Source of the DNA: Escherichia coli
Lineage (GTDB): Bacteria; Pseudomonadota; Gammaproteobacteria; Enterobacterales; Enterobacteriaceae
NCBI RefSeq assembly: GCF_003334385.1
Contig: NZ_QOWN01000018.1
DNA: 64,000 nt
Strand: one strand, 5' to 3'
Position numbers and translations under genes: made by a program. The notes below the pieces were generated by a model. It saw only the letters and a list, made by a program, of their open reading frames with translations. It did no database searches and was not told the origin of the DNA. Positions 6,260 through 31,441 of this stretch are shown here, piece after piece (the stretch's first letter is position 1; each line of letters opens with the position of its first letter).

Positions 6260-6285
6260 GATTATTTTCCTTATGAAGCTGGGGC

Positions 6286-6702
6286 TTAAAAATCGGTTGA
6301 GTTATTTTGTAAACCCGAAACCTGGATGGTCGAGGTTTGTCCGGTTTTACGATCTGTCACGTTCAACTGCAATTGACCATCGCGGTTGGCAATATCGACA
6401 ATATAATCGTTGGTCACCATGCGGCCCGGTTTACCGGTATTAATATTCGACAGTAGCCCACCTAAAATTTGTGACTGGATGGCCTGAGTAAAGTTATCTA
6501 ACGCTGAGGGTGTTTCAATACCAAAGTCATCGTTATAGCTCGGATCTTTATAAGAGTTTTGGGCCTGAGCGCTATTTAATAAAAAAGCGCCATTATTTGG
6601 GTTACCACCAAAGTTTGGATTACGGAACTGGAAAGTCATGGTTCCAGCCCAACTTAATGGCGAAATAAGCATGAGTAGAACTACTGCATGTTTGACACGC
6701 AT
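6286..6702 (-). CDS. csgF: curli assembly protein CsgF
   Basis: 138-aa secreted protein, operon position. Confidence 0.93.
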
Positions 6703-6726
6703 TGCAGCCTCCGAACAATTTTTTAT

Positions 6727-7116
6727 TTAGAATTCATCATGCGCCAAATCGCCCGTACTTAATAACGCCTGATTTATCTGGCGACGATTTAGTGCTTCTT
6801 CAGTTTGAATCAGTGCAAAGACGACAGTTTTCTCGAAGTCTCTTTTCAACGGAAATAAAAAAGTCTGGAAAATAACGTCCTGATTGACCGTTATAGTGAT
6901 CCAGCTTCCCCATCGTGCACTGGGCCTTTCATTAATCGTTAAGTTACCCGTATAGTCACTTTCCCATTTATCACTAAAGGCTCGGTAAAAATCATGGCCA
7001 ATAGATGAAACAGTATGGTCAGTTAGCAATCCCGGGACTTCTACCTCAACGGCGTGAAGATTCCCTGCGGCGAACAGAAATTCTGCCGCCACAATCCAGC
7101 GTAAATAACGTTTCAT
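6727..7116 (-). CDS. csgE: curli secretion specificity factor CsgE
   Basis: 129-aa secreted protein, operon position. Confidence 0.93.
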
Positions 7117-7120
7117 GGCT

Positions 7121-7771
<651 letters not shown>

Positions 7772-8525
7772 GATGAAACCCCGCTTTTTTTATTGATCGC
7801 ACACCTGACAGCTGCCTCTAAAATAGAAGCACCAGAAGTACTGACAGATGTTGCACTGCTGTGTGTAGTAATAAATCAGCCCTAAATGGGTAAAATATAA
7901 AACTAATGGATTACATCTGATTTCAATCTAGCCATTACAAATCTTAAATCAAGTGTTAAACATGTAACTAAATGTAACTCGTTATATTAAAATGTTAACC
8001 TTAAGGTTTTATTAAGTTTAGAAATGATAGAAAAGTTGTACATTTGGTTTTTATTGCACAATTTTAAAAAATCATACAAATGGTGATAACTTACTAATAA
8101 TGCATATAAAAAATATTTCGGTGTAGTCCTTTCGTCATGTAAAACGTTCTTGTTTTTTCTCCACACCTCCGTGGACAATTTTTTACTGCAAAAAGACGAG
8201 GTTTGTCACGGCTTGTGCGCAAGACATATCGCAGCAATCAGCGACGGGCAAGAAGAATGACTGTCTGGTGCTTTTTGATAGCGGAAAACGGAGATTTAAA
8301 AGAAAACAAAATATTTTTTTGCGTAGATAACAGCGTATTTACGTGGGTTTTAATACTTTGGTATGAACTAAAAAAGAAAAATACAACGCGCGGGTGAGTT
8401 ATTAAAAATATTTCCGCAGACATACTTTCCATCGTAACGCAGCGTTAACAAAATACAGGTTGCGTTAACAACCAAGTTGAAATGATTTAATTTCTTAAAT
8501 GTACGACCAGGTCCAGGGTGACAAC
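7772..8525. promoter_or_regulatory. csgD-csgB divergent intergenic control region (csgDEFG and csgBAC promoters)
   Basis: 754-bp AT-rich non-coding gap between divergent csgD and csgB; known to carry sigma-S dependent promoters and multiple regulator binding sites. Confidence 0.85.
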
Positions 8526-8981
8526 ATGAAAAACAAATTGTTATTTATGATGTTAACAATACTGGGTGCGCCTGGGATTGCAGCCGCAGCAGGTTATGAT
8601 TTAGCTAATTCAGAATATAACTTCGCGGTAAATGAATTGAGTAAGTCTTCATTTAATCAGGCAGCCATAATTGGTCAAGCTGGGACTAATAATAGTGCTC
8701 AGTTACGGCAGGGAGGCTCAAAACTTTTGGCGGTTGTTGCGCAAGAAGGTAGTAGCAACCGGGCAAAGATTGACCAGACAGGAGATTATAACCTTGCATA
8801 TATTGATCAGGCGGGCAGTGCCAACGATGCCAGTATTTCGCAAGGTGCTTATGGTAATACTGCGATGATTATCCAGAAAGGTTCTGGTAATAAAGCAAAT
8901 ATTACACAGTATGGTACTCAAAAAACGGCAATTGTAGTGCAGAGACAGTCGCAAATGGCTATTCGCGTGACACAACGTTAA
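8526..8981 (+). CDS. csgB: minor curlin subunit / nucleator CsgB
   Basis: Start trimmed to MKNKLLFMMLTILG; curlin repeats (Q/N-rich). Confidence 0.95.
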   Translation: MKNKLLFMMLTILGAPGIAAAAGYDLANSEYNFAVNELSKSSFNQAAIIGQAGTNNSAQLRQGGSKLLAVVAQEGSSNRAKIDQTGDYNLAYIDQAGSANDASISQGAYGNTAMIIQKGSGNKANITQYGTQKTAIVVQRQSQMAIRVTQR

Positions 8982-9021
8982 TTTCCATTCGACTTTTAAA
9001 TCAATCCGATGGGGGTTTTAC

Positions 9022-10928: not shown

Positions 10929-12351
10929 TTTGCCCCGGCTGGCGAGCGCGGTGCTGCCACTGTGTTCGCAACATCCCGGTCAGTGTGGCCTTTTTCCTCT
11001 GGAGAAAAGTCTGGATGCGTTTGCCGCCCGGTATCGTCTGGCCGAAATGGCAGAGCATACGCTCGATGTTCAGTATTACATCTGGCAGGACGATATGTCG
11101 GGTCGGTTACTGTTTTCCGCCCTGTTAGCCGCAGCAAAGCGTGGCGTTCGCGTCCGTTTGTTGCTGGACGACAACAATACGCCCGGACTTGACGACATTT
11201 TACGCTTGCTTGACAGTCATCCACGCATTGAAGTCCGGCTTTTTAATCCTTTCTCGTTTCGCTTGCTGCGTCCGCTTGGTTATATCACCGACTTTTCCCG
11301 TCTTAATCGCCGTATGCACAATAAAAGTTTCACTGTCGATGGCGTGGTGACCCTGGTGGGAGGACGAAATATTGGTGATGCCTATTTTGGAGCAGGGGAG
11401 GAGCCACTTTTTTCGGATTTAGATGTCATGGCAATAGGACCCGTGGTAGAGGACGTTGCCGATGATTTCGCCCGCTACTGGTATTGCAAATCGGTTTCAC
11501 CCTTACAGCAGGTGCTGGATGTCCCGGAGGGTGAAATGGCGGATCGCATCGAGTTACCCGCCTCCTGGCATAACGATGCCATGACGCATCGTTATTTACG
11601 CAAAATGGAATCCAGTCCATTTATAAATCATCTGGTTGATGGAACATTGCCGCTTATCTGGGCGAAGACACGTTTATTAAGTGATGATCCGGCGAAAGGG
11701 GAGGGCAAGGCAAAACGGCATTCACTGTTACCGCAGCGCCTGTTCGATATCATGGGCTCACCCAGTGAACGCATCGATATTATCTCTTCCTATTTTGTAC
11801 CGACACGCGCAGGTGTGGCGCAACTCTTACGGATGGTGAGAAAAGGGGTAAAGATTGCGATCCTAACCAATTCTCTTGCCGCTAACGATGTTGCTGTCGT
11901 CCATGCCGGATACGCGCGCTGGCGCAAAAAATTGCTCCGCTATGGCGTGGAATTATATGAACTCAAGCCGACGCGTGAACAAAGTAGTACGTTACACGAT
12001 CGCGGCATAACCGGTAATTCCGGAGCCAGCCTGCATGCTAAAACCTTTAGCATCGATGGTAAAACGGTGTTTATCGGCTCTTTCAATTTCGATCCGCGTT
12101 CAACATTGCTCAATACTGAAATGGGCTTCGTGATAGAGAGCGAAACGCTGGCACAGTTAATTGATAAACGCTTTATTCAGAGCCAGTATGATGCGGCCTG
12201 GCAGCTCCGTCTGGACAGGTGGGGACGGATCAACTGGGTTGATCGTCATGCAAAGAAAGAGATTATTCTCAAAAAAGAACCCGCCACCAGTTTCTGGAAG
12301 CGGGTTATGGTCAGACTGGCGTCGATATTGCCCGTGGAATGGTTATTGTAA
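10921..12351 (+). CDS. clsC: cardiolipin synthase C (phospholipase D family); start may instead be the TTG at 10930
   Basis: Two HKD motifs ([18 protein letters not shown]); overlaps ymdB stop (ATGAATGA). Confidence 0.88.
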
Positions 12352-12358
12352 ATGTGGC

Positions 12359-13516
12359 TTAACGGGCTGGTGCTTTATCGTTCTCACGCTTAACAACCGG
12401 TTTACCAGAGAACAAAAACTTCAGTAACGGGATGCGCAAATGAATTTCATACAGAATTATCGCAATCCCTACTACAAATATCAGGCCACAGAGAAAACCA
12501 AGCCAGTTGGAGGTGATGTGCGGTGTAATGTATGCGCCGAAAAACAGCGTTAACGGGTGGTGAACCAGATAGATAAACAGCGATGCGTTAACAAAATAAG
12601 TCACCCGCGCTGACTGGAAGTTAAGCAAACGGTGGCCAAAGGAGAAGACCACATTCACCATCCACAGACCGAGGACCATGGTGATCACCGACTCGGTTTC
12701 GTACATCCAGGCATCGCCACTGCCATAGCGCTGGTTGAGTAAATAAGCGACAAACGCCAATGCTGCTGCAAGGGTACAGCCACGAGACGGCGTGGTAAAC
12801 AAGGCTTTAAGATGAGGGAAAATGAAAGCCAGTGCGCCGAGGATAAAGAACGGCAAATAAAACAGCGTTTGCATGACAATAAAATTGAACATGCCATTAC
12901 TCAGAATGGGCGGATACACAATAAAAATCGTTCTTCTTATTACCGCATAACCGATGCCGAGGCATAAAAAAATCACCGATAGTTTTACCATCGAGAATTT
13001 TTTATTCGTTTTATCAGAATTTTCTAAATTATTTCTGATGCGCTTAAATATCCATACGCACAGCGTCGTCATGACCACTAACACCAGTAAAAACCACAGG
13101 TGTGATATTAATTCCCAGGCCAACGTATTATATTTGTCATACAATGACAGCCCAGGCCAACTTTCCGCTTTTCCTTTGACATATTGCAGCATAATAAATT
13201 GCGGTAATGTCAGTAGGGGGATGGCTGTTAACATCGGGATACCTACACGTTCGACACGTACTTTCCACCATTTTTTCAAGGGATAGCGTAAAAAAAGCAT
13301 GTAGGAAAAGTAGCCGGATATAACGAAAAATACCTGCATGCGGAACGAGTGGATGAAGTCATTAAAAAGGGTCAGCCACAATGATGATTCGGCGCTATTC
13401 ACATGCCATGTATGGCTCGAATAGATTAAAGAAATATGAAAAGGTATCCCTAACAACATCAGCCAGGCGCGGATGGAGTCGAGGAAATATTCACGTTGCG
13501 CGGGTACTGGGTTCAT
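12359..13516 (-). CDS. opgC: osmoregulated periplasmic glucan succinyltransferase OpgC
   Basis: 385-aa multi-pass membrane acyltransferase-3 family protein. Confidence 0.9.
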
Positions 13517-13798
13517 ATATGGTTAACTAATCTCGGATTTTTCGTCTTATCCCTGTCGGGTTATGCCTTTAGGCTTGTTGCCATAGTGACACCGACCTGA
13601 CCGCGCCAGGCGCAGGCTTCAAGGTTTTTATGCATAGCATCATCGCTACCACTAACCAGAATGGAAGCGTCTGTAAGACGGTTGATAAATAAATTTGCTG
13701 GCAAACCCTACACGAAGTCGATGCTTCTGTCTTTAGGAGAAGCACGGAAAGTGAAAACGGTTGCAATCAGGTGCTTAATCCATGAGCCAGCGTGCTGA

Positions 13799-17981
<4,183 letters not shown>

Positions 17982-18838: not shown

Positions 18839-19887
18839 TCAGTTCGATACCTGGGGTATTCGACGACGACGTAGACTGTTCCATGAATAGACTGCGTTGA
18901 ATAACACTACGCCAGCGGTGACGAGAAATACCGCTCTGAAACCGTAGTTCGCTGAAATCGCTGCTCCCATCAATGGTCCGGTAACGTTGCCAATATCACG
19001 AAACGATTGGTTATAGCTGAAGATACGCCCGGCGATCTGGTTGCTCGAGTTGTAAACCAACAGTGTCTGTACGGCGGGGAGTAGTGCACCATCGGCGGCA
19101 CCGAGCAAAAAACGTAAAATCCCAAGTTGCAATGGCGTCTGAACGTAAGACATTGGGATCAACAGCAGTACAGAAAAGATCAGCGCTGTAATCAGGATCT
19201 TTTCGGGTCCGATTCGATCGCCAAGTTTGCCGAGTCGTGGTGCACTTAGCAGAGCCGCCACGCCTGGCACCGAGGCGATCATGCCACTGATAAAGGCGAC
19301 GTTACTGACGTTACCCGCCAGTTCGCGGACATACAGCGTCAGAATGGGGGCAATTGAGCCCGTCGCCACCTGGATGATTAACGTAGTGACAAACAGGCTG
19401 AGTACCAGTTTCGGGTTTTTAAGTGATGTCACCACTTCCCGCATGTGCAGCATCTCTTTTTTGCTGACCGGCTGGAATTTTTCTCTGATGCAAAACAGGG
19501 TGACGAAAAAGCAGAGTATGAGCACACTGGCGGTAATAAAGAATACCGGACGTAAGCCGTAGCTATCGGCGAGCAGGCCGCCAGCCATTGGGCCGAGCAA
19601 CGCACCACTAACGCCGCCTGTGGAGAGCGTACCCAGCGCCCAGCCGCTTTTATTACGCGGTACTTGTGTGGCGATAAGAGCATTAGCGTTGGGGACAAAT
19701 CCGCCAAGTAACCCAAGAAGCGCCCGCAGGATCAAAAACTGCCAGATATTTTGTGCCAGCCCCATCAACACCATCACGATGCCCATGCCGAGGGCAGAGC
19801 GTAATAGCATGAGTTTTCGGCCTTTACGGTCGGCGAGTCCACCCCAAAACGGTGAGGCGATGGCCGAAAATAAAAATGTAATGCTGA
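18839..19887 (-). pseudogene. mdtG: mdtG 3' fragment (C-terminal about 350 codons of MFS efflux transporter MdtG), separated from its 5' end by the inserted element
   Basis: Reading frame of the 323-aa ORF continues upstream without an ATG to 19887, where MdtG-like sequence (..[17 protein letters not shown]..) is interrupted. Confidence 0.85.
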
Positions 19888-20289
19888 TATTTGTTCCCTA
19901 AATACACCATGAGAACATACCTGTTAATAACAGGACAATATCAGGTGAATGATTATGCAATTCAACGGTGTTTTTCCAAGTATCTAAGCAGTTTTACACA
20001 GATTCTATGCAGTATCGGTATAGTCTCTTTTTAGCATAACTTATTGATATCTATAAAGAATCTGTGAAGTCTCTTTTCAGGGTAAACTGTATCGTGTTAG
20101 TCGTCCCTCTCTCGACTCCTAGAAAAGTGCTATATACAGGGCTATATAACGATATATAGATAGTTGGTCACATGGTGTAACTATCAAGAAACTTAACGAT
20201 TTCCTACGTGAAAGTTAGAAAGTGATGGTTATAGTTACCCTCCTAAAATCTTCATAGCTCCTTCATAACCAGTCTTAAAAGGACTTCCT

Positions 20290-20404
20290 TATGAGACACT
20301 TTCAACGTAACGGTAGAATGCACCTTCCAAGTGTCTCATAAGCTTGTTTTTGAATTATGAGACAGCTAAACTTATGAGACCAACTTTTGAGACTTCTTAG
20401 GGGG
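20290..20404. promoter_or_regulatory. res-like cluster of resolvase-type half-sites (TGTCTCATA, matching TGTCYNNTA) overlapping the promoter of the small serine recombinase gene
   Basis: TATGAGACA at 20290-20298 and inverted TGTCTCATA at 20332-20340; further direct copies at 20357-20365, 20373-20381 and partial at 20387-20394, ending just 5' of the RBS/ATG at 20409. Confidence 0.55.
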
Positions 20405-20408
20405 ATGT

Positions 20409-20957
20409 ATGGCGGTGATTGGTTATTGCAGGGTATCAACACAAGACCAGACTGTAGACAACCAGAAACTACAGATAGAGAAGGTTCACAAGGTCGATAA
20501 ATGGTTTATTGATGAGGCTGTCTCAGGAGCTACAAAGGCCACCAGCAGAGATGGTTTTAGAGACATGATGAACTATGTAAGGTGTGACGATACGTTAGTT
20601 GTGGTAGCTATTGACCGTTTAGGGCGTAATACCGTTGATGTGCTCTCTAACGTGGAGGCACTACAGACTAAAGGTGTGAGGGTTGTTTCTCTACGTGAAG
20701 GTTTCGACTTATTAACACCAATCGGTAGAGCAATGCTTACTATGATGGCTGGTTTAGCTGACCTTGAAAAAGACCTTATCAGTGAACGTAGAAAGGCTGG
20801 TATTGAACGTGCTAAAGCTGAAGGGGTTCACATGGGGAGACCTGTAAAAGCTTCTTCAGAGACTGTAAAGATGCTTATCTCACAAGGTAAAACGAGGTTG
20901 CAGATTCAGGAAGAGCTAGGAATCTCTAGAGCAACTTATTACAGACTTGCTAAATAA
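20409..20957 (+). CDS. small serine recombinase (resolvase/DNA-invertase family) with C-terminal HTH
   Basis: 182 aa; N-terminal catalytic motif VIGYCRVSTQDQ (active-site Ser), resolvase core, C-terminal HTH LGISRATYYRLAK; RBS GGGGGA upstream. Confidence 0.85.
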   Translation: MAVIGYCRVSTQDQTVDNQKLQIEKVHKVDKWFIDEAVSGATKATSRDGFRDMMNYVRCDDTLVVVAIDRLGRNTVDVLSNVEALQTKGVRVVSLREGFDLLTPIGRAMLTMMAGLADLEKDLISERRKAGIERAKAEGVHMGRPVKASSETVKMLISQGKTRLQIQEELGISRATYYRLAK

Positions 20958-21300
20958 GTTACTGAATAGTTACATGGATGTAGCTGATATTTGGCTTTTT
21001 TGCAAAGGGGGTCACATAGCTGGTGTGACGGGTACTTAGCAGGTATAGACCTGTGATAGATATTTTCGAAGATTCGGGGAAGATGAGATTCAAAGAGGGC
21101 TAGTCATTTTTTATAAAAATTTTCAGAATCTGAAAAGTTACTGTACAGAATATATACAGACATCTTTAAAGTATCTGTAAAGACTTTTAAGATAAAAGAT
21201 AGATATCCAGAAAGGATATCCGTTTAGAAAGACTGTTAAGTATCTCTTAAAAGAGAGTAAACCTTGTCAATAGTGATTGCAATAAAAATTTTTATTTCTT

Positions 21301-21963
21301 ATGTCAATTGAGCATATTTTAATCGGGAAGCATCATGGGGGTTCTGATTACTGGAGAACTCCATTTTTGTTATTTAAGAATCTAAACTGTGAATATATTT
21401 TCACGCTGGATGGTGCTGCAACTAAGCACGATACGTTATTACCCCGCTTTACGGATGATATTCACAATCAATCGTGGATTGGCGAAAGGGTGTTCTGTAA
21501 CCCGCCGTACAGCGATATTCCGTCGTTCCTCATAAAAGCGTCTGAGGCAGATTTAGCGGTATTCCTGATACCGTATAGAGCCAACACCAGCTACTGGCTT
21601 AGGCACATTTACAGCAATAACCACTGTCATGAAATCCGTATTCTTCATCGTGCAGTTAAATACCTTCCACCAGCAGGCCATAACGGGCTTACTATTCGTT
21701 CACCGTTTCCAAGTGCAGTCATTGTTTTTAAAAAAGAACCACGCAGGCATGAAATTACGCAGATGATTTGCTGTGCTGATACATTGCTACCGTTAACCAT
21801 CATTAACAGAGGAGGCTTAAGAGGAAGACCCACCATTTACCCACCTGAGACGCTCGACAGCTTCATAAAACTATACAGGCAAGGAAAACCCATTAAGTGC
21901 ATTGCAGATGCTCTCAGAATGCCTCTGAGCACGTCATACAGGATTGCGCAAAGGTTGAGCTAA
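21301..21963 (+). CDS. phage-type DNA N6-adenine methyltransferase (Dam/T1-like family) with C-terminal HTH-like extension; orphan (no cognate nuclease recognised)
   Basis: 220 aa; motifs DYWRTP, FTLDGAA and catalytic CNPPYS (NPPY), ...FPSAVIVF; extra C-terminal approx 70 aa with HTH-like segment. Confidence 0.75.
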   Translation: MSIEHILIGKHHGGSDYWRTPFLLFKNLNCEYIFTLDGAATKHDTLLPRFTDDIHNQSWIGERVFCNPPYSDIPSFLIKASEADLAVFLIPYRANTSYWLRHIYSNNHCHEIRILHRAVKYLPPAGHNGLTIRSPFPSAVIVFKKEPRRHEITQMICCADTLLPLTIINRGGLRGRPTIYPPETLDSFIKLYRQGKPIKCIADALRMPLSTSYRIAQRLS

Positions 21964-22325
21964 AATTCTCATAAATATGGTCATTTACAAGACAGGTGAT
22001 TCAGATATTAAGAAGTATCCCTGTGAACAATAAATGACCAATCAGTAATTATTCTGTGAAATAATTGTTGCAATTTATAATCACATCTGTTATAGTTTCT
22101 ATATGGGCTGATAAAAAAGTTCATGTCTTGAAGTGGTAACACTTGGGGAGGTGTCAGATGGTTGGCGTATAAAACCTCTCATTCATGGTATACCTCAGCG
22201 TTTTAATCATCGTACTGTTTCAGGCATGGACTTCTTTATCAGTCCATCAATCCCCCAGATATTTTAATCACACAGGCTAATCGGTTTTATCCGGTTGGCC
22301 TTTTCACATATGAGGTATTTTATGA

Positions 22326-23294
22326 ATGAAAAAAGAAACTAATGCTTTTATTATGGTAGATAAACGAGTTGCACAATTCCCTAAAACATTAAAGCCAATT
22401 GACCGCTTGGTATATTTCACTATGCTGGATGGTGCTGATTATTACGAATCTAAGTTCGGGAGATATGCACCAAGTATTGACTATTTGATGGTTATGTCTG
22501 GTGCTACACGTAATACAGTTATTGACTCTCTGAAAAGACTTGAGTCACACAGGCTTATTGAGAAGACCAATATCAAAGGGCAGCAAAGTATTTTTAAAGT
22601 ATTCACGTTAGATGAGCGTCCAGAAGTCTTATCAGAACCTACCCTTGATGAGCGTCGTAGAGTCAAATTATCAGGTCAACCAGAATCTGACACTAACCCA
22701 ACCAAAAATTGGTTACCTACCCAACCAGAATTTGGTTACCTACCTAACCAGAAATTGGTTACATGTAATACTGAATATAAAGACAAAAATATAAAAACTA
22801 AAGAAGAAAGACTAAAAGGGAACTTTGAAGAAGAATCTCTTAAGAAGGGAGCTTCGCTCTGTGATTCACATGAATGTGATATTAAAGAAGATGACTTTCT
22901 TTCTTTGGATGAATTAAATGATTTTCTCTCTATGAATGAATCTGACCTTGATAGTGAAGCTACTAAAGAGGTCGTTAAAAAGGAAGATAAAATCTCTGAT
23001 GTGATTGCTAGTAGTGACCATAAAAACACACAGTGCCCCGCCACTGATGATGAGATGGACCCCTTCGATGATGATGAAGAGGATGAAGAGTCAGAACGTG
23101 AAAAAGCCATTAAGAGGGTAGAGAAGAAAAAGAGATTCGAGCTTGCAAGACAAAAGAACAAAGTATCGGGTTTAGACCCATTCGATGACAGTGAAGATGA
23201 TTATTATCTTTCACCGAGAAAGAAACAAACCCAGGATGACAAGAAGCAAAAAATTAAACCGAAGATGTATTTTGCTGGTGGAGGTATGCGCTAA
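22326..23294 (+). CDS. putative replication initiator (winged-helix N-terminal domain, acidic C-terminal tail) with origin-like iterons embedded in its coding sequence
   Basis: 322 aa; N-terminal winged-helix-like region; internal DNA iterons plus AT-rich tract resembling the lambda O/ori arrangement; C-terminus very rich in D/E. Confidence 0.55.
   Translation: MKKETNAFIMVDKRVAQFPKTLKPIDRLVYFTMLDGADYYESKFGRYAPSIDYLMVMSGATRNTVIDSLKRLESHRLIEKTNIKGQQSIFKVFTLDERPEVLSEPTLDERRRVKLSGQPESDTNPTKNWLPTQPEFGYLPNQKLVTCNTEYKDKNIKTKEERLKGNFEEESLKKGASLCDSHECDIKEDDFLSLDELNDFLSMNESDLDSEATKEVVKKEDKISDVIASSDHKNTQCPATDDEMDPFDDDEEDEESEREKAIKRVEKKKRFELARQKNKVSGLDPFDDSEDDYYLSPRKKQTQDDKKQKIKPKMYFAGGGMR
22676..22820. 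repeat. Origin-like iteron array (3-4 direct repeats of about 23 bp, each containing the palindrome AACCARAAWTTGGTT) followed by an AT-rich tract
   Basis: AACCCAACCAAAAATTGGTTACCTAC / CCAACCAGAATTTGGTTACCTAC / CTAACCAGAAATTGGTTACATG at 22695-22765, partial unit at 22677-22693, then AT-rich 22766-22820. Confidence 0.65.
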
Positions 23295-23584
23295 TGAGAG
23301 AATATAACGGTGAAAAACGATACAAAGATTATCTATTAAGGCGCTACAGCATTTCTCGTGAAGGTCATCTTCTGAAAGATACTCATGGGGAGGTTTACCG
23401 GATTCGACCGAAGAAGGAAGGAAAGAATTATTTCTTTTTTGATGGTGTGACAGATTTAAAGATTGACGCTTTGAGGTTTGCAGTGCTGTATCATTATGAT
23501 ATCTGGGATTCGGTCCACCAGCTACGATTAAAAGACGGTGACCCCGGTAATCTGAGGGCCACCAATATCATCACAAAACGTTAG
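23294..23584 (+). CDS. small protein, possibly degenerate HNH/NUMOD-like; function unknown
   Basis: 96 aa; start overlaps stop of upstream gene (TAATG); C-terminal segment LRLKDGDPGNLRATN loosely resembles HNH_3-type motifs. Confidence 0.4.
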   Translation: MREYNGEKRYKDYLLRRYSISREGHLLKDTHGEVYRIRPKKEGKNYFFFDGVTDLKIDALRFAVLYHYDIWDSVHQLRLKDGDPGNLRATNIITKR

Positions 23585-23903
23585 TTTGTTTTACCATCAT
23601 CAATCGTAATTGTGATTTCATATTTGAAAAGCTTAATGCTGAAATTGAATCGTGTACTTTTGGCGATAATCATTTTTAAAAGCTGATACACCAGAAGCAC
23701 CAGAAACACAAAGCAACCTAAGCTTGCGAATCTGTGAGATTCAGCAATTGTTTCAAGAAAGCCCATTAATTCCCCTTATTTATCAAAGGGAATGACCTGT
23801 ATCAGCCCCTATAACCATAATATCATGTAAATGAGATGTTGACAATATGTTAAATAAATGTTAAGATTGTAGTATGAGTAAGAGATTTAAGGAGATTTTT
23901 ACA

Positions 23904-24194
23904 ATGACTCACACAGTTACGCGCCTTTTGCCAGAGGCATTTGAACGACTGGCAGCAATCAAAGCCAAATACCCTGATATGAAGCACACGGCGCTTGTTG
24001 GAGAGCTTTTAAAAGAGTCGGTAGCCCTGACCCCTTTCGATAACGTTAAGGGCGTTGCAGAGGGTTCTAAGGCCATCAGAATCACAACAGGCCAACTGGA
24101 ACTACTCAAAGCGCAGTCCGCAGTAGCAGGTTGCTCAATGATTCAGGTGTTAAGCACTAAGGTTCATCAACTGGCGGATAAATTGGAGGTTTAA
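23904..24194 (+). CDS. hypothetical protein, possible ribbon-helix-helix DNA-binding regulator
   Basis: ORF track 23874..24194; the internal ATG at 23904 is preceded by RBS AAGGAG; predicted beta-strand/helix pattern (TVTRLLPEAFERLAAIKAK). Confidence 0.45.
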   Translation: MTHTVTRLLPEAFERLAAIKAKYPDMKHTALVGELLKESVALTPFDNVKGVAEGSKAIRITTGQLELLKAQSAVAGCSMIQVLSTKVHQLADKLEV

Positions 24195-24580
24195 TGTATG
24201 ACTTTTATAAACATCGTGACCATTTGGTAAGATTTGACGGTAGAGTCTGGAAAGACATAACAGAAACCAATAAACCCAAGTTTACCCACCAGCAATTAGC
24301 CTCAAGATTTGATATCTGGACTGAAGCACAAAAAGATAATGGTGATTTCGAGTTTATCAGGGGTTTTGATTATGCTTACGAAGATGACCTTAAAGACGCC
24401 ATTAAATTAATTGAAAATTTTAATGGAAATAATTCTGGTGACAAACACAAAGCCAATGGTAATCGGTATGACAGGGAGTTAATTCTTGATGCCATTTCCA
24501 GAGGTCAATCACAAAGTTATATTTCTGAGAAATACGGCTTATCACGTAGTCAATACTACAAGATTAAAGCGTCTGTGTAA
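24194..24580 (+). CDS. hypothetical protein with C-terminal HTH (regulator or terminase-small-subunit-like)
   Basis: 128 aa; start coupled to upstream stop (TTAATG) with RBS GGAGG; C-terminal HTH ISEKYGLSRSQYYKIKA. Confidence 0.5.
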   Translation: MYDFYKHRDHLVRFDGRVWKDITETNKPKFTHQQLASRFDIWTEAQKDNGDFEFIRGFDYAYEDDLKDAIKLIENFNGNNSGDKHKANGNRYDRELILDAISRGQSQSYISEKYGLSRSQYYKIKASV

Positions 24581-24717
24581 GCCTGTGAGAATGAGTGAGA
24601 CTCAAAGATGAGCTACCCTATTACTAAGGTGTCTCACTCCCTCTGTAACCCGCATGGTTACTGGCCTCAGAATGGCTATTTTGGCAGATTTAAGATGTGT
24701 TTTAGAGGAATTTAAAA

Positions 24718-25041
24718 ATGAACAACTTCCCATTACAAATTTTCGTTGATAACGACACCGCTCTGATGATTCAGGCTTTCACTGATTCCGGTGTATCAAT
24801 TGACTTTGACAGGCTGTTAGAGTTGATGGCTGATAATGCAGAAAACATCTCTGACTTTATTCAGTCGGTGGAGTTTAACGAGCCTCGAATGATGCTACCA
24901 ATTAAAGACAGCAACATGAAAAGATTGGTTATCGAGCAAACGAACAAATACAGCGTTAGCCCTGAAAGATATCTCAAGGCAGCTATAGCAATTTTGTGCG
25001 CTGACAATATTTTGGTGACGGATTCGAAGGTGGTGCATTAA
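24718..25041 (+). CDS. hypothetical protein
   Basis: 107-aa ORF with RBS AGAGGA; no recognisable motif. Confidence 0.45.
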   Translation: MNNFPLQIFVDNDTALMIQAFTDSGVSIDFDRLLELMADNAENISDFIQSVEFNEPRMMLPIKDSNMKRLVIEQTNKYSVSPERYLKAAIAILCADNILVTDSKVVH

Positions 25042-25118
25042 TGGGCTTAATAATTGCTTGGACAGCTTTGGGTTTATTTGTTGGTTGCTGGGTAGGTAAC
25101 ACAGTAAATAAGAATTGA
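25041..25118 (+). CDS. candidate small hydrophobic peptide (25 aa, single predicted TM helix), translationally coupled to upstream ORF
   Basis: ATG overlaps upstream TAA (TAATGG); encodes MGLIIAWTALGLFVGCWVGNTVNKN; below the size cut-off of the ORF track. Confidence 0.3.
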   Translation: MGLIIAWTALGLFVGCWVGNTVNKN

Positions 25119-25535
25119 TGTTGCCAATCTGTTAAAAAGCTGTTGACAAATAACCTTAAGCATGACATAATTTTAATTATGGGAGAGTAATTCTCTCTTA
25201 TATTTCTTTCAATAATCCGATGGATGGATGGATATTCTGAGTTGGTGAGGTATGTTCTATACCGAACATTCTGAAAGGTGCAATGCTTTTCGCTACATGA
25301 CCTCTTATATAACCTGAGAGGTCATCTCGAAAAGTACTCTTGTTCATTCGTTATTGAATCCTTTAGATGTTTTAATTTCTTCACCTTATGAATAGCCCTT
25401 TATAAGAAATTATCTAGGGCTATTCAGTTTTTAAAAAGCATACTTGGCAAACCGCCTTTTAAGTCTCTTCTAAGTTCGTAGGCTGTCAGGTGTGCTTTTT
25501 AAAAACTGAATATACTTAGAAGAGGAAATGAAATA

Positions 25536-26246
25536 ATGGCAAATGACATTTATATTAGTGGAAGAAAAATTGATAGCTTCGGTGACTGGTCGCCACAGAC
25601 TGAACATCCAGCTATCGTTATTCAGCGTAAAGAACACGATGCGAGAATTGAGCTTGAGCAAGAGCTAAAGATGTCACCAAAGCAAATTACCTTTGTGTCT
25701 CCTGAGCCTCAAGAGATGCCTGATGTATGCAAGAGTGAAGCATTGCTTGAGCTTGAAAAGAAATATTTCCCAGCTTTAAAAGCACAGCGTCTTAGATTAG
25801 ATGACGCTTACAGCAAAGTTACCCTGATGCAATCAGCTATTGAACCGTCAGAATTTGAGATTCAGGATGAATTGTCACAGAAACCATTTGTTTATTACCA
25901 ATATGCAGACAATGATGGTTTTGGTACTTTTCCTGAGAATATCCCAGACGCGATTAGTAGTCTTCCTGATGGATATCGAATTGTGAAGATGGTTAAAGCT
26001 TCAAGGGGTGCTGGTCAATTTATTTATATGACCAATAAGAGCGATGAAGAACTCGCTGAACTTGCTAGACAGAACATCTTGGCATCACGTAACAAGCAGC
26101 TTGATAGTGCTAAGTTGTATCTCTCAAGAGAGCTTCAGGCTATGAAAGAGCTTGTTAGTGAATATGAGTCGCAGAAGAAGATTGCTATGCAAGCTGATAT
26201 TGAGCAGTTAGTGAAGATTTCTCAGAAGTATAGTAAAGCACTTTAA
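25536..26246 (+). CDS. hypothetical protein with C-terminal coiled-coil
   Basis: 236-aa ORF with RBS GAGGAAA; no recognisable catalytic motif. Confidence 0.5.
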   Translation: MANDIYISGRKIDSFGDWSPQTEHPAIVIQRKEHDARIELEQELKMSPKQITFVSPEPQEMPDVCKSEALLELEKKYFPALKAQRLRLDDAYSKVTLMQSAIEPSEFEIQDELSQKPFVYYQYADNDGFGTFPENIPDAISSLPDGYRIVKMVKASRGAGQFIYMTNKSDEELAELARQNILASRNKQLDSAKLYLSRELQAMKELVSEYESQKKIAMQADIEQLVKISQKYSKAL

Positions 26247-26270
26247 TTATGAATTAAGAAGAGGTGATTA

Positions 26271-26480
26271 ATGTTTGAAGAACGTTTAGAGACTATTCGG
26301 TCTGTTTGTGAAAACTTAAAGTTACAAACCAAGCCAGCCTTAAGAATTAAAACCAAACATCAAATTATCACCTCACACAAACCAAAAACACGCAAGATTC
26401 CAAAGTGGTGTATTGACCGTATTCCTTCTGATGCTCAAATCATAGGTGAAACGGAATTACATTATCTTGTCCGACATTAA
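26271..26480 (+). CDS. hypothetical small basic protein
   Basis: 69-aa ORF with RBS GAGGTG. Confidence 0.4.
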   Translation: MFEERLETIRSVCENLKLQTKPALRIKTKHQIITSHKPKTRKIPKWCIDRIPSDAQIIGETELHYLVRH

Positions 26481-26577
26481 AAATTGGTTGGGTAAAATCA
26501 ACGGGAGAGATTATCGAGTGACATCGGTAGTTTCTCCTTTTTTTGTATATGAACACTTAAGAGGTGAAAAAATATGA

Positions 26578-28749
26578 ATGGCACAGTTTAAAGTTGATGA
26601 TTTTCTGATTGAGCTAGGTTTTAACTCTCAGAGGGTTTTAAAAGGTCTGGAAAAAGCCGAGAAACAAACGATGCAGGTAGCATCACGAATTGAGAAGCGA
26701 TTGAATAAAGCTTTTAAAGTTAACCCTACGCCTTTAAATGATTCTCTCAAGGTCATGGAAAGAAATGTCGATAAAACTGTTTCCAAGATTGAGCAGCGTC
26801 TTAAAAACACTAAAGCGTTTAAGATTAAAACGGAAATTGAGGATACTTTAAAGCCACTTAAACAACCGAGACAGCCACGAATTAGCGGCAACAGAGCAAT
26901 CACAGCAGCACATAGTGTGAATATGTCTAAGCTTGGTGATATTAATCCGCTGATGGCTAAAATGTTTAAAGCACAGTATTACAGCTTAAGCGGTAAGGCT
27001 GGTAATATTGGAAGTGAAAAGTTTAACGCTGAACTTGCAAAATTAAATCAATCTCTTCGTGAAACGTTGAATAAACTCAGGTCACAGACAAAGACCGCCA
27101 GCATCAGCAAAGTAAATGATTCCTTTAATAATCTTGCAAGCAATGCAATTAAGTTATCTGGTGCATTTTACTCTGTGATGGGTGCTCTTAACGCTTACAA
27201 GGCCATTATGAATGCAGGTCTTAAACGAGATTCCGCACAGAGAGCCGCTAAGTTTGTACTTGGTGATAAAGCATCTGAAGCTGAAACATTTATCAGGGGA
27301 CTGGCTGACAAGACAGGTCTTAATATCTCTGAAGGACTATCAAGCTACGCTAAGTTTGCAGCAGGTGCTCAGGGTTCTATGTCACAGGAACAGACACAGG
27401 AGCTATTTGGTAATGCAACGGCTATGAGCCGTTTAATGGGGCTTTCTAACGATGAACTAAACGGCATTTTGAAAGCTTTTGAGCAGATGGCTTCTAAGGG
27501 CAAGATTCAGGCTGAAGAATTACGTGGGCAGTTAGGTGACCGTATGGCTGGTGCATTTAAGCTATTCGCTGAAGCATTGGGTATGACTGCTACAGAGCTT
27601 GATGCAGCCATGAAAAACGGGAAGGTACTTTCCGCTGATACTCTCCCTAAAGTCGCTAAACAGATGGGCTTGATGATTGATAAAGCGGGTGGCTGGGCTG
27701 AAGTCGCTAAGAGCACCCAGACAGCTTTAGGTAAGTTAGCAAACAACTGGGATGATACGATGGTTAAAATCTTCTCAGGTTCACAGGATGAGTTAAACGG
27801 CTTCTTATCCAGCCTGGGTAGCCTGCTTAGTGAAATGGGGATGAGTTCTTCTATCGCTGGTGATGCTATCGGTGGACTTATCGACATGCTTAAAGCTGGT
27901 GTAGATGATATTCGCGTATTCAATAACACCATTGAAGGCTGGATTTTACAGGTTAAAAAGTTCTATTACAGCCTTGATGACACTAAACGAAAACTACTTG
28001 ATGAAGTCGGTGATGGTTTTATCAATTTTGTCAAAGGTCTTGCTATAGCGTTATCTGCAAAGACGCTATTCAGTGCCACTACAGGGGTGATGAACCTGAC
28101 AAGAGCAATCACAACGTTAGGTACAAGAGCTAATCAGGTGGCTGGTCAGGTAACTACTGGTAAAGGTGGTGGAAAACTGAAAGGTGTAGCTGGTGGTGTA
28201 GGTAGTGCTCTTGCAATTGGTTATGCTGATGACGGTTATGAAACAGCGTTAGCATTAGCTTCAATGATTCCACAAATCAGAGGTGTCACCCTTGGTTTAT
28301 ATGCATTGAAGAAAGCACTGGATTTTATGAATCAGGAAGTAGTCAAAAACGCTAATATGCATCCATCTGGGGTAGGTGTGGGTAGTGACTTTAATCCTGT
28401 GTATTCTGGTGACCCTAATAAACCGAATATGATTAACGAAGGATGGAGTAAAATTTTTAATTCAATGGGTGAATTGTTTAACAATGCCACAATGAATATT
28501 GCAAGATTCAATCATCCAGAATTAAACAACATTAAGCAAGATTCAGCATTAACGAGTGCAGATATTCAGAGTCTGAGGGATGAAATTAGTGCTTTGAGTA
28601 AACGTATTCAGGAGCCTGTGAAAGTTTCACTTGGTGGTGAAGTTGCCATTAAACCAGATGAAACCAGCTTTATGACCTTTAGCAGTAATATCTACGACCA
28701 ATATGCAGAAGCTACGCTATTAAGTTCATCATTCCCAGAAGATGATTGA
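26578..28749 (+). CDS. phage tail tape-measure-like protein
   Basis: 723 aa; coiled-coil N-terminal part; segment AEELRGQLGDRMAGAFKLFAEALGMTATELDAAMKNGKVLSADTLPKVAKQM resembles the conserved tape-measure N-terminal domain; Gly-rich middle. Confidence 0.65.
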   Translation: MAQFKVDDFLIELGFNSQRVLKGLEKAEKQTMQVASRIEKRLNKAFKVNPTPLNDSLKVMERNVDKTVSKIEQRLKNTKAFKIKTEIEDTLKPLKQPRQPRISGNRAITAAHSVNMSKLGDINPLMAKMFKAQYYSLSGKAGNIGSEKFNAELAKLNQSLRETLNKLRSQTKTASISKVNDSFNNLASNAIKLSGAFYSVMGALNAYKAIMNAGLKRDSAQRAAKFVLGDKASEAETFIRGLADKTGLNISEGLSSYAKFAAGAQGSMSQEQTQELFGNATAMSRLMGLSNDELNGILKAFEQMASKGKIQAEELRGQLGDRMAGAFKLFAEALGMTATELDAAMKNGKVLSADTLPKVAKQMGLMIDKAGGWAEVAKSTQTALGKLANNWDDTMVKIFSGSQDELNGFLSSLGSLLSEMGMSSSIAGDAIGGLIDMLKAGVDDIRVFNNTIEGWILQVKKFYYSLDDTKRKLLDEVGDGFINFVKGLAIALSAKTLFSATTGVMNLTRAITTLGTRANQVAGQVTTGKGGGKLKGVAGGVGSALAIGYADDGYETALALASMIPQIRGVTLGLYALKKALDFMNQEVVKNANMHPSGVGVGSDFNPVYSGDPNKPNMINEGWSKIFNSMGELFNNATMNIARFNHPELNNIKQDSALTSADIQSLRDEISALSKRIQEPVKVSLGGEVAIKPDETSFMTFSSNIYDQYAEATLLSSSFPEDD

Positions 28750-28905
28750 TTTAACGGTGTTCTACGTGAATAAAGCAAAGTTAATACCCGCACTAAAAAT
28801 TATTTTTTACGTAGCACACGCTTAACAGAGAAAATACTTATATATCAAAGGCTTGGTTAAAAATGATTAAAATACACTAAGCCTTTGAAATCAAAGGAGA
28901 ATTTA

Positions 28906-29694
28906 ATGATTTACTCTAATCAACTTCGTTACAGTGGCAAAGATGGTGTTTACTTCCATCTACAAGGCCAACCAGATAATTTCTTGTCACTATCAGCAAC
29001 AGAGAACATGGAATTTGACAGCCCTATGATGGTGACCACTCAAAATATGCAATCAGGGCAGACTGTAACAGATAATGTAATGCGTTCACCCAGAACTATT
29101 TCAATCAGTGGTGTGGTTGTAGTTGGTGAATCCGGTAGTATCCTCATCTCAAGAGATAATAAGCTGGTGGAAAACTTCATCGACACTCTTGAAAGCTGGC
29201 GTGACCAGAAGCAAATTATTTCGGTCATCTGTAAAGACGGAATTAAAATTGATGATTCTATTATTACGAGTTTTAAAGCCTCTAAAGATGTTGGTATTTC
29301 AAATGGTCTAAGAGTCCAGCTAACTTTTCAGGAAATTAACTTTAAAGCAATTGTAGGGCAAACTGATGTTTCAGCAGCTACTGGCAAAGCTGCCACCACG
29401 AATGACGGTGGTGTGACCAGTAAGAAGAATGCAGGTAACGTGACCACTGAACGCAATAACGCGCCTATGCTATCGTGCAAAGAGTTAATGAATATTAGCG
29501 ATGTATCCGGTTACGTTCCGGCTATCAGAAATGATATTCTCGATGCTCAGATTAAGTGCAATAAAGCTTGGAAGCTGGACTATTCAGACTTAACAGAAGC
29601 TGAAAAAACCAACGTCACCAATGCTAATAGTAACGCTGGTCGAGTAGCTTCAAAGCTTAAAAAGTACTCAGTGAATCCTAATAAGAGATACTAA
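28906..29694 (+). CDS. hypothetical protein downstream of tape-measure gene (possible tail-associated protein)
   Basis: ORF track 28885..29694; ATG at 28906 preceded by RBS AAAGGAGA; gene order after the tape-measure gene. Confidence 0.45.
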
Positions 29695-31220
29695 ATCTCT
29701 ACTACATCAACATCTATTAAACCCCTCTCAGTGACTTCAGAAAGCGACTGTATAGCCTCTGTAACGTTGTCTGAGGGGTTTTCTGTTATAGGTAGGTCAA
29801 TTACCTTGCCGTTGTGAAAAGTCACTTTACAGCGACGTTTAGCGGCATCTATAACTATTTCTTTGAGTACGCCCTTGATAAGTAGCTGTGTCTCTATCAT
29901 CCCTTCCTTTGTTGTCCTGTCAATATCTTTGAGGCTTCCAGTTGTGATGGCCTTTATCCGCTGTGTTTCCTCTTCGATATCATGATTGAGTTTTGATAGC
30001 GCATTCTTCATATCACGTAATTTCTCTGTGATAATTGTCATGTCATCGAGTTCAATAGCGAGTTCTGCCATTTTTGAGATTTTACGCTGCAAATCTTCAC
30101 GCTGTAATTTAAGGCTATCAATAGTGTCAGTATTTTCAGTTTCAAAACGGTCGCATAATGCGAGCATGTAGAGAATAGTTGCATCCGTTTGCTTACGACT
30201 GATAGCCTTTGCACTACACCTGTTAGCTGAACGATTAGGGCATCTGTACATCCCAAAACGTTTTAAGGCATATCCACCAAGAACAATAGTAGCCCCACAC
30301 TCAGAACATTTGATGATACCCCTGAACAAGTTGACTGATAGCGGATTACTTGATACAGAAGCCCTACCATATTGCCCTGTGTTCAGTTGCTGTACTCGAT
30401 AGAATAGTGACTCACTGATTATTGCGGGGTAGTAACCCTGAACTTCTTCACGTCCAGCAGGTGTGAAACATCCAATCACAGCACGATTTCTGAGTAGTTT
30501 CTTTACAGCAGTATCAGACCACCCCTTTTGTTTGGGTGTGTATTGATTCAATGACAAGTGGCCTTCATCGTTTAAAGTTCTGGTGATAGCCCAAAAGCTT
30601 AAACCCTGTAATCTCAGGTCAAATGCTCGTTTAACAACTTCCACTTTATCGGGGATGATAGTGAATGTTCGACGGTCATCATTCAGCCTTAACCATGCAG
30701 GACAACGCCTAGATACCTTGATACCTTCGGAGATGAGTTCTTTTTTACGGTTCCATGCAGCTTGGACACGCTCAGACTTCCTCAGACTTTCCTCATGCGC
30801 CCGCTGCATTATCAGAATGCTTTTAATCAGGGATAACGGGTCTTTTAAACTTTCTCGTGTGTAATGTTCACCATCGGACAGGGTGACTACATCTACACCA
30901 GCCCTTAAGATACGGCGTAATAGCTCAGAAGCAATATCAATATCCTGACGTGACAGACGGTCTAAACTCTCGATTAGTAGCGTATCACCAGCTTTAACAA
31001 GCCCTTTCTCGATAGCGGTTAGAAAGTCACCTAGACCACCTTTCAGGTGCTTACCACTAAAAGCACTTTTCCCCAAATCTTTAAAGCTCAAGGATGAATC
31101 CAAGTAAAACTCAGGGTTCTTATCAAGCCAGTCAGTAACCAGCTTAGATTGTCTGCGTACAGAGTCCCCTTTTAGTTGTCGTTCACTTGAAAATCTGATG
31201 TAGCTGATTGCCCGTCTCAT
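29691..31220 (-). CDS. large serine recombinase (serine integrase)
   Basis: About 510 aa; N-terminal resolvase-type catalytic domain ([12 protein letters not shown], active-site Ser), recombinase domain, zinc-ribbon-like Cys cluster (CSECGATIV...CPNRSANRC), C-terminal coiled-coil; first ATG at 31220, track start at 31226 is TTG. Confidence 0.88.
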
Positions 31221-31243
31221 ATTCAATACCTAAAATGATGTGT

Positions 31244-31441
31244 TTAGGAACCCATTATACTGAAGACAATACCGGACCACATATTCAGGGCGGAGTGACC
31301 GGTAACGCCAAGCTGCTCAACGTAGAGGGGTAAGAAGGGCATTACCAGACTGAAGGCGGCACCGGTAAGAAAACAGCCTAGCCAGGCGACGATCAGGTTT
31401 CGTTTCCAGTTTATAGGGGTGTCATTTTCACAGGGTGACAT
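31244..31441 (-). pseudogene. mdtG: mdtG 5' fragment (N-terminal 58 codons of MdtG fused to 7 element-derived codons before a stop)
   Basis: Starts [16 protein letters not shown]... as MdtG; sequence diverges at the junction near 31260. Confidence 0.85.

Follow-up and report, generated by a model that had tools for sequence, protein, structure and literature searches.

A tape measure and tube initiator gene pair in an integrative element of Escherichia coli mdtG suggests a satellite of Felix-O1-like phages

The DNA analyzed here is a 64,000-nucleotide (nt) stretch of Escherichia coli contig NZ_QOWN01000018.1 (assembly GCF_003334385.1), referred to as the window, in which the multidrug efflux gene mdtG is interrupted by an integrative element of ~11.37 kb. 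Near one end of this element lie a gene for a 723-amino acid (aa) tape measure protein (TMP), a gene for a 262-aa tube initiator (TI) and, on the opposite strand, the integrase gene, which encodes a large serine recombinase (LSR) and overlaps the convergent TI gene by 4 nt (Table 1). A sequence-only reading of this DNA had placed the first two genes at 26578-28749 and 28906-29694, coordinates with which an open reading frame (ORF) scan agrees; TI is counted here from the ATG at 28906, as the mechanical ORF call begins at a TTG at 28885. That reading had described the 723-aa protein as tape-measure-like, in agreement with the matches reported below, and the gene after it as an unknown one that converges on the integrase. 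The convergence holds, but the gene is not unknown, as its product contains a Dit_like domain and is 69% identical to the tube initiator gp18 of Felixounavirus Bas63.

By homology, the 723-aa protein is a genuine TMP. The Pfam comparison that the sequence-only reading had proposed for both proteins returned TMP_3 (E 1.2e-18) for the TMP and Dit_like (E 6e-19) for TI. The TMP also matches PHROG 4036 ‘tail length tape measure’ (E 6e-88) and 11 more PHROG families, 10 of which are annotated as tape measure, as well as the solved Bas63 gp17 (PDB 9ndy_F ‘Tape measure protein (gp017)’, E 3.3e-68). It is colinear with gp17 and 32% identical to it across aa 1-479, and its middle is strongly diverged from the phage counterpart. 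The N-terminal ~45 aa are conserved (~60% identity to gp17), and the C-terminal tip, LLSSSFPEDD, closely resembles the LLSSSYPEEE of Bas63, in which the last 25 TMP residues touch the hub and the puncturing protein, as seen by cryo-electron microscopy (PDB 9NDY, PMC12609058).

The 28906-29694 gene is, again by homology, that of a Dit-like tube initiator. Its product matches PHROG 3721 (E 1.6e-119) and PDB 9ndy_A ‘Tube initiator protein (gp018)’ of Bas63 (E 1.8e-102); residues 86-161 are identical to gp18, and window DNA 29170-29435 within the gene is 94.7% identical to Bas63. In that phage, a TI hexamer fits the threefold hub to the sixfold tube (cryo-electron microscopy, PMC12609058), and each TI consists of a tube-like fold followed by a C-terminal extension of ~100 aa, which passes through the baseplate beside the spacer proteins (PMC12609058). 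The corresponding extension of the element protein, ~90 aa long, is a divergent, element-type variant that ends in an invariant, phage-like SVNPNK motif. The parts predicted to contact assembly partners are kept, namely both TMP termini, the TI tube domain and SVNPNK. The pair resembles gp17-gp18 of Bas63 (PDB 9NDY; PMC12609058) in gene order (gp17 at 11480-13708 and gp18 at 13708-14505 of the phage genome), TMP colinearity, conserved TMP termini and TI identity. It differs in being detached from the chaperone, tube, sheath, hub, spike and wedge genes and in adjoining an integrase gene.

No other virion gene is recognizable in the element. Searches of the ten other ORFs of at least 65 aa against PHROGs, Pfam and NCBIfam found no head, portal, terminase, tube, sheath, baseplate-wedge, fibre or lysis family, and when the twelve proteins of the element were compared with the whole Bas63 genome (87.1 kb) by tblastn, the TMP and TI alone gave matches. 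Besides the genes listed in Table 1, the element encodes several small proteins. The same searches bear out the earlier statement that no head, portal, terminase, capsid or lysis gene can be recognized.

The borders of the element were defined by alignment to an uninterrupted mdtG (locus L009). Homology ends at 19887 and restarts at 31260, which therefore delimits the element to window positions 19888-31259. The gene is present in two pieces on the minus strand (18839-19887 and 31260-31441) and is split after codon ~60; its 5' fragment runs on into the element up to a stop codon at 31244-31246. The tetranucleotide CTGA stands at both junctions, and the reconstructed attB reads ...AAATGTAATGCTGA up to the junction and AGACAATACC beyond it. 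The attachment (att) junctions are clean and precise, and on the element side their arms show imperfect symmetry of the kind expected of a serine-integrase attP. Homologues of the LSR are annotated with Resolvase, Recombinase and Zn_ribbon_recom domains. All element ORFs are intact, and the element forms a low-GC island within the chromosome (Table 1). Further low-GC stretches (0.38-0.45) occur outside of it, at window positions 6000-9000 and 12000-14000.

The element belongs to a widespread family. A blastn search with the block formed by the TMP and TI genes and o69, a 69-aa ORF directly upstream of them, picked up 488 of the 5426 complete E. coli genomes (~9%), 75 of them with a match that spans 80% or more of the query. 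A whole-element megablast had suggested that the element is nearly unique, with a single genome reaching at least 80% coverage, a picture that the 488 block matches refute; in a mosaic family such as this, a search with the whole element misleads. The protein database contains more than 120 distinct TMP alleles of full length (at least 95% identity), from E. coli, Shigella sonnei and Salmonella. Relatives of another core protein, o236, number 21 among 1.84 billion representative proteins and come from E. coli, E. albertii, Citrobacter and Pluralibacter. In all, the family is found in E. coli, E. albertii, Shigella, Salmonella, Citrobacter and Pluralibacter, a range near that of the Ounavirinae, the phage group that includes Bas63. 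The core gene order, o107 - o236 - ~70-aa ORF - TMP - TI, is kept in loci L001-L003, L007, L008, L010-L018, L020 and L021, and a convergent LSR gene closes the core wherever the fetched stretch reaches far enough. Four or more integration sites are represented: mdtG, the interval between yciI and tonB, the inside of yecE, and wrbA, where the element provides a substitute WrbA N-terminus (L020). The ~20 related loci all share one compact gene set, and none contains additional virion genes.

Both conservation and reassortment are evident within the family. Pairwise ratios of nonsynonymous to synonymous substitution (dN/dS), computed for the five core genes o107, o236, o69, TMP and TI with the LSR left out, range from 0.04 to 0.5 overall and point to purifying selection. 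The values are 0.04-0.23 for TI, 0.14-0.35 for the TMP, 0.19-0.51 for o236 and 0.21-0.48 for o69, with o107, o236 and o69 jointly at 0.19-0.51. Allele classes diverge down to ~45% (TMP) and ~27% (o236 and o107) amino-acid identity, and alleles are shuffled among loci. TMPs of class A (716-727 aa, tip LLSSSFPEDD) always occur with variant 1 of the TI extension, and those of class B (688-691 aa, tip LISSAYPEE) are paired with variant 2; this pairing may reflect co-adaptation or plain linkage.

In a collection of 50,697 phage records, the element TI matches 299, of which 218 show 60-80% identity. These records belong to Felixounavirus, Mooglevirus and related phages of Escherichia, Salmonella, Shigella, Citrobacter and Erwinia, with genomes of 83-98 kb among the matches listed. 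The best full-length TMP matches, at 29-35% identity, are also to Ounavirinae. These Ounavirinae relatives are known as strictly lytic, and the Bas63 record contains no integrase. Exchange between element and phage is visible in the TI gene of a sister element, L001. Compared with Bas63 gp18, its DNA identity is 0.86, 0.95 and 0.95 over codons 1-45, 46-88 and 89-175, but 0.44 and 0.51 over codons 176-200 and 201 to the end, whereas the respective values against the window gene are 0.74, 0.66 and 0.93, followed by 1.00 and 0.96. The tube-like domain of L001 is thus nearer to the phage than to its sister element and its extension is of the element type, which marks the gene as a mosaic formed by recombination, its breakpoint lying close to codon 175. 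Such mosaics indicate recent recombination between the elements and Ounavirinae.

Because the element carries its own versions of a Felix-O1-like TMP and tube initiator, it is most likely a satellite of such phages. With a probability of roughly 0.55, we read the TMP and TI as the tail module of an intact 11.4-kb element that exploits or specifically targets Ounavirinae by forming chimeric tails, as the PLE satellites of Vibrio cholerae do with phage ICP1. Upon infection by such a phage, the element TMP and TI would take the places of gp17 and gp18 in the initiation complex (hub, TMP and TI), and the helper would contribute tube, sheath, wedges, fibres and chaperones. The resulting tails would serve transfer of the element and lower the phage yield. 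They would be expected to be ~2-8 nm shorter, because the element TMPs are 688-727 aa long as compared to 742 aa for Bas63 gp17. The remaining genes can be fitted to a satellite life cycle, in which the LSR would integrate and excise the element, a Rep-like protein would replicate it, and ribbon-helix-helix and helix-turn-helix proteins would exert control.

The PLE system provides the experimental precedent. Genes for a TMP and a tail assembly chaperone are found in every V. cholerae PLE, and a baseplate hub gene in most of them (Mathur et al. 2025, PMC11838301); the products show 19-41% identity to their ICP1 counterparts (PMC11838301). PLE11 virions contain the PLE TMP and hub to the exclusion of those of ICP1, so that the tails are chimeric, and PLE tails are ~10 nm shorter (PMC11838301). 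Deletion of the PLE tmp gene lowers transduction by 96-99.9%; PLEs use an LSR integrase and a RepA initiator, and their helper is a virulent myovirus (PMC11838301). Like a PLE, the mdtG element is a small integrative island that encodes both an LSR and an initiator of replication (here Rep-like), and its helper would be a strictly virulent myovirus, as is known for PLE. In both systems the TMP and a hub-proximal protein are diverged from those of the helper (20%/41% identity for PLE and ~32%/66-76% for the mdtG-element family), and the helper has the slightly longer TMP. The mdtG element differs in residing in Enterobacteriaceae, in having phage relatives among the Ounavirinae and in its size of 11.4 kb, the PLEs measuring ~18 kb. 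It also has no recognizable tail assembly chaperone, TcaP-like scaffold or RepA_N domain. This comparison is one of gene content with a published description, the mdtG element being known from its sequence alone.

A second precedent comes from E. coli itself, where 224 elements described in silico carry capsid, decoration, TMP and baseplate genes and are linked to Justusliebigvirus (Barth, Dunham & Seed 2023, PMC10055350 / PMC10448857). One of them (L019) ends in a small ORF, a TMP gene, a gene for a Dit-like protein that is 53% identical to Stephanstirmvirinae proteins, and a tyrosine integrase gene; it also encodes a 343-aa protein that matches PHROG 29 (capsid). The two families share a size of 10-14 kb, an E. 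coli integrative lifestyle, the layout small ORF - TMP - Dit-like - convergent integrase at one end, tail genes that match one virulent myovirus lineage, and Rep proteins that match PHROG 270. They differ in that the previously described elements carry major capsid and decoration proteins, whereas no capsid PHROG or Pfam match was found in the mdtG element. The former also mostly use a tyrosine integrase beside tRNA genes, and the N-terminal domain of their Rep is mirrored by phage Odn-like nucleases, whereas the Rep of the mdtG element has no phage match. BLASTP of the L019 proteins against those of the mdtG element returned nothing below E = 1, and strain CFSAN029787 carries both families, at separate loci. 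The sequence-only reading had named a satellite with its own tape measure as one option, which is now the best supported, indirectly. Its remark that this is not a described strategy does not stand, as the PLE and E. coli precedents (PMC11838301, PMC10055350) mean that the use of a TMP by satellites was already known. What appears to be undescribed so far is the element family itself, together with the lineage of its helper and its minimal set of genes; no paper tying satellites to Felixounavirus was found in the literature searched. A narrower version of the proposal can be put forward tentatively, at somewhat less than even odds: these elements would be the first satellite family of Ounavirinae, PLE-like parasites residing in E. 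coli, Citrobacter and Salmonella, and one that has neither capsid nor chaperone genes and hijacks its helper solely by the TMP and TI swap, with the TI extension and the TMP tip as the sorting switch.

Several observations weigh against a PLE-like satellite. Excision, replication, packaging and transduction of the element are predictions rather than observations, and no circular or virion-derived copy of it was found. The related loci from IMG/VR come from contigs of 20-55 kb, five of seven with identifiers in the style of isolate genomes, and the 11.5-kb metagenome contig L020 has wrbA sequence at both ends; neither L020 nor the 11.8-kb contig L021 shows a terminal overlap. Genes for packaging, capsid-size redirection or tail assembly chaperones were not recognizable in the element, and an 11.4-kb element would have to fill a capsid made for an 87-kb genome. 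The promoter of the operon has the look of a constitutive and strong sigma-70 promoter, not of one that depends on a phage. The Rep-like protein has no match among the 50,697 phage records, and no Odn-like anti-satellite nuclease was found there. Finally, the Ounavirinae-like non-coding segment of the element (Table 1) was seen, among the elements checked, in the window and L001 only and is therefore not a core feature.

The lack of detectable packaging and capsid genes would also suit an island that serves defence alone, which we regard as unlikely. Here, the TMP and TI would act as dominant-negative decoys that join the tail-initiation complex of infecting Ounavirinae and lead to dead-end or non-infectious tails, and the element would remain unpackaged, spread by other means and protect a clonal population. 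Decoys of this type could be pre-loaded into cells from the strong sigma-70 promoter, and they would be expected to look much as these proteins do, with conserved phage-interacting parts and a divergent TMP middle and baseplate-spanning TI extension. Interference with tail assembly is, moreover, a known defence theme (Rta of PLE11, PMC11838301, and Tai systems, PMC11364771). A decoy does not obviously need a full-length TMP and TI in two paired allele classes, however, and a Rep-like initiator, a second recombinase and an anti-restriction-type methyltransferase typify elements that amplify and transfer. Apart from the orphan methyltransferase, no PADLOC defence model matches the element, and in PLE, the sole precedent tested, the satellite TMP is needed for transduction and not for defence.

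Less probable still is a role of the TMP and TI outside of the virion, which the sequence-only reading had raised as repurposing. They might insert into the membrane and block DNA injection by incoming Ounavirinae (superinfection exclusion), or be injected together with the element DNA. TMPs and hub-proximal proteins exit the tail into the envelope during infection, and the N protein of phage Mu has been reported to protect the ends of injected DNA; the diverged TMP middle and the seemingly constitutive promoter would accord with such a function. We disfavour it because what touches phage partners is preserved at both TMP ends and in the TI tube-like domain, so that conservation peaks where assembly partners bind. 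In addition, a pure exclusion factor would need no tube initiator, and Pfam found neither a signal peptide nor an added domain in the TMP or TI. The decayed prophage that the same reading had offered, a tail-operon remnant left by a serine-integrase phage, would explain an isolated tail gene pair beside an integrase with the other virion genes absent from searches, but it can be set aside as highly improbable: the nearest phage relatives are virulent and have no integrase, no larger relative with more virion genes exists among ~20 loci, the genes are intact, the five core genes compared are under purifying selection (dN/dS 0.04-0.5), the att junctions are precise, and one 10-12-kb architecture is seen in several genera and at no fewer than four sites.

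If the satellite reading is true, its consequences reach beyond this locus. Detailed knowledge of satellites of virulent phages comes essentially from one system, PLE-ICP1 in V. cholerae, where chimeric tails were reported only in 2025 and raise the questions of their benefit and of the sorting mechanism. A tractable second system would become available, with matches in ~9% of complete E. coli genomes and a phage group that is well studied and used therapeutically (Felix O1, the BASEL phage Bas63). The question of how and why a satellite selectively installs its own TMP, which PLE had raised, would be directly testable, because the Bas63 baseplate has been solved (PDB 9NDY) and its host is E. 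coli K-12-compatible. Felix-O1-like phages are also employed in biocontrol and typing of Salmonella and E. coli, where such islands could cut efficacy or be mobilized. More generally, prophage debris should not be the default annotation for a lone tail gene beside an integrase.

Table 1. Features of the mdtG element and its borders, in window coordinates.
Feature	Position	Strand	Basis or remark
attL core CTGA	19884-19887		Left junction in mdtG; comparison with uninterrupted mdtG (L009)
Integrative element	19888-31259	+	mdtG homology breaks; GC content 0.36-0.43 vs ~0.50 in flanks
Small serine recombinase, resolvase/invertase type, 182 aa	20409-20957	+	NCBIfam Mpi-family invertase E 1e-29, below family cutoff
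Non-coding Ounavirinae-like segment, palindrome GATATCC-N5-GGATATC	21160-21240	+	DNA search of phage records
Orphan phage-type N6-adenine DNA methyltransferase	21301-21963	+	NCBIfam TIGR01712 E 1.8e-9, below cutoff
Replication-initiator-like helix-turn-helix protein, 322 aa	22326-23294	+	PHROG 270/678/428 ‘replication initiation protein’ E 5e-8 to 2e-6
Core gene o107, tandem ribbon-helix-helix DNA-binding protein	24718-25041	+	
Near-consensus sigma-70 promoter, TTGACA-17-CATAAT with TG	25143-25171	+	5' of o236-o69-TMP-TI; predicted
Conserved structured leader or non-coding RNA, 360 nt	25176-25535	+	Minimum free energy -120.6 kcal/mol, z = -7.7 vs shuffles
Core gene o236, coiled-coil hairpin protein, 236 aa	25536-26246	+	AlphaFold 2 (AF2) model
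Core gene o69, 69 aa	26271-26480	+	Directly 5' of TMP gene in all elements examined
Intrinsic-terminator-like hairpin, 15-bp stem and T-run	26503-26538	+	Between o69 and TMP gene; kept in 7/7 aligned elements
Tape measure protein, 723 aa, Felixounavirus gp17 homologue	26578-28749	+	Pfam TMP_3, PHROG 4036, PDB 9ndy_F
Inverted repeat CTACGTGAA...(~35 nt)...TTTACGTAG	28762-28826	+	Between TMP and TI genes; 7/7 aligned elements
Tail tube initiator, Dit-like baseplate hub protein, 262 aa, Felixounavirus gp18 homologue	28906-29694	+	Pfam Dit_like, PDB 9ndy_A
Large serine recombinase (integrase), 511 aa	29691-31226	-	PHROG 95 ‘integrase’ E 6e-81
attR core CTGA	31256-31259		Right junction; mapping against intact mdtG

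Of all promoter-like sites in the element, the one that scores highest (11 of 12 matches) precedes the operon that ends in the TMP and TI genes. Six of the seven aligned elements have identical hexamers here, and the divergent L010 departs from them by a single position. The leader that follows is conserved in alignment A2 and keeps a ~27-bp hairpin at ~25424-25512, for which covariation gives little support because the sequences are too alike. A scan with Rfam found no credible match in the element, leader included; the leader could be a regulatory RNA similar in role to SviR of PLE or the CI RNA of P4. The terminator-like hairpin in front of the TMP gene was considered as proof of conditional expression, but this was not accepted because the tail operon of Bas63 has an analogous hairpin or attenuator between its tube and chaperone genes. 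Similarly, the inverted repeat CTACGTGAA...TTTACGTAG, of which L002, L003 and L008 have a second copy 5' of the TMP gene, was rejected as a late promoter common to the phage because it was not found in Bas63, and no late-promoter motif common to the element and Bas63 was found. The repeat may be an operator or an RNA processing site.

The Ounavirinae-like segment at 21160-21240 is the sole DNA match of window positions 19888-26577 among the phage records. Its matches of 62-81 bp (80-87% identity) occur in 253 records, all of Felix-O1/Moogle-type Ounavirinae and all intergenic; in Bas63 it agrees at 35 of 36 positions with 79805-79840, between gp128 and gp129. It looks like a phage operator or promoter that was captured 5' of the methyltransferase gene. 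The methyltransferase itself is matched by the PADLOC orphan methyltransferase model (E 4.5e-14), the only PADLOC defence model to match the element, and its L001 homologue is named a methyltransferase by PGAP. Counterparts of the small serine recombinase in related loci have a recorded Resolvase Pfam domain. Just 5' of its gene, at 20290-20400, TATGAGAC occurs in 4-5 copies and in both orientations, and these repeats may be binding sites for a recombinase or regulator.

The Rep-like protein has its best match in PHROG 270 (E 5e-8); Pfam gave just a weak HTH_36 (E 0.005), and neither Pfam nor PHROG gave a RepA_N match. Protein o236 has no match in Pfam, PHROG, NCBIfam or PADLOC; AF2 models it (pLDDT 79) as an extended antiparallel coiled coil that carries a small domain at its tip, and fold searches with this model gave generic matches only. 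No sequence or fold match to a TcaP-like capsid scaffold was found in the element, o236 being a helical coiled coil. Neither o69, o236 nor o107 matched chaperone PHROGs (o69 and o236 at E up to 10), whereas gp15 and gp16 of Bas63 did so at E 1e-48 and 1e-55. The idea that o107 is a hidden tail assembly chaperone was rejected, as its model folds as a tandem ribbon-helix-helix and a PDB profile search was empty. No ORF had a PHROG, Pfam or NCBIfam match to the hallmarks of P4-like elements (Sid/Psu/delta), PICI (AlpA, Pri-Rep) or cfPICI (capsid, protease, terminase).

Three further observations concern the variable parts and small ORFs of the family. In L002, L003 and L007, the variable left half contains a gene for a ~95-aa HNH endonuclease, and L003 also encodes an AP2-domain protein; these are homing-endonuclease-type domains, which Barth et al. 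discuss as a currency in conflicts between phages and satellites. In L007 (NZ_CP027586, 17468-21577), the LSR gene is split by the IS21-family element ISEc12, and this copy is therefore probably immobilized. Finally, a 25-codon ORF, MGLIIAWTALGLFVGCWVGNTVNKN, begins right after the o107 stop codon (window 25042-25119, plus strand) and encodes a single hydrophobic helix; its frame is kept across six elements with changes that look mostly synonymous, and its product could be a small membrane peptide or toxin.

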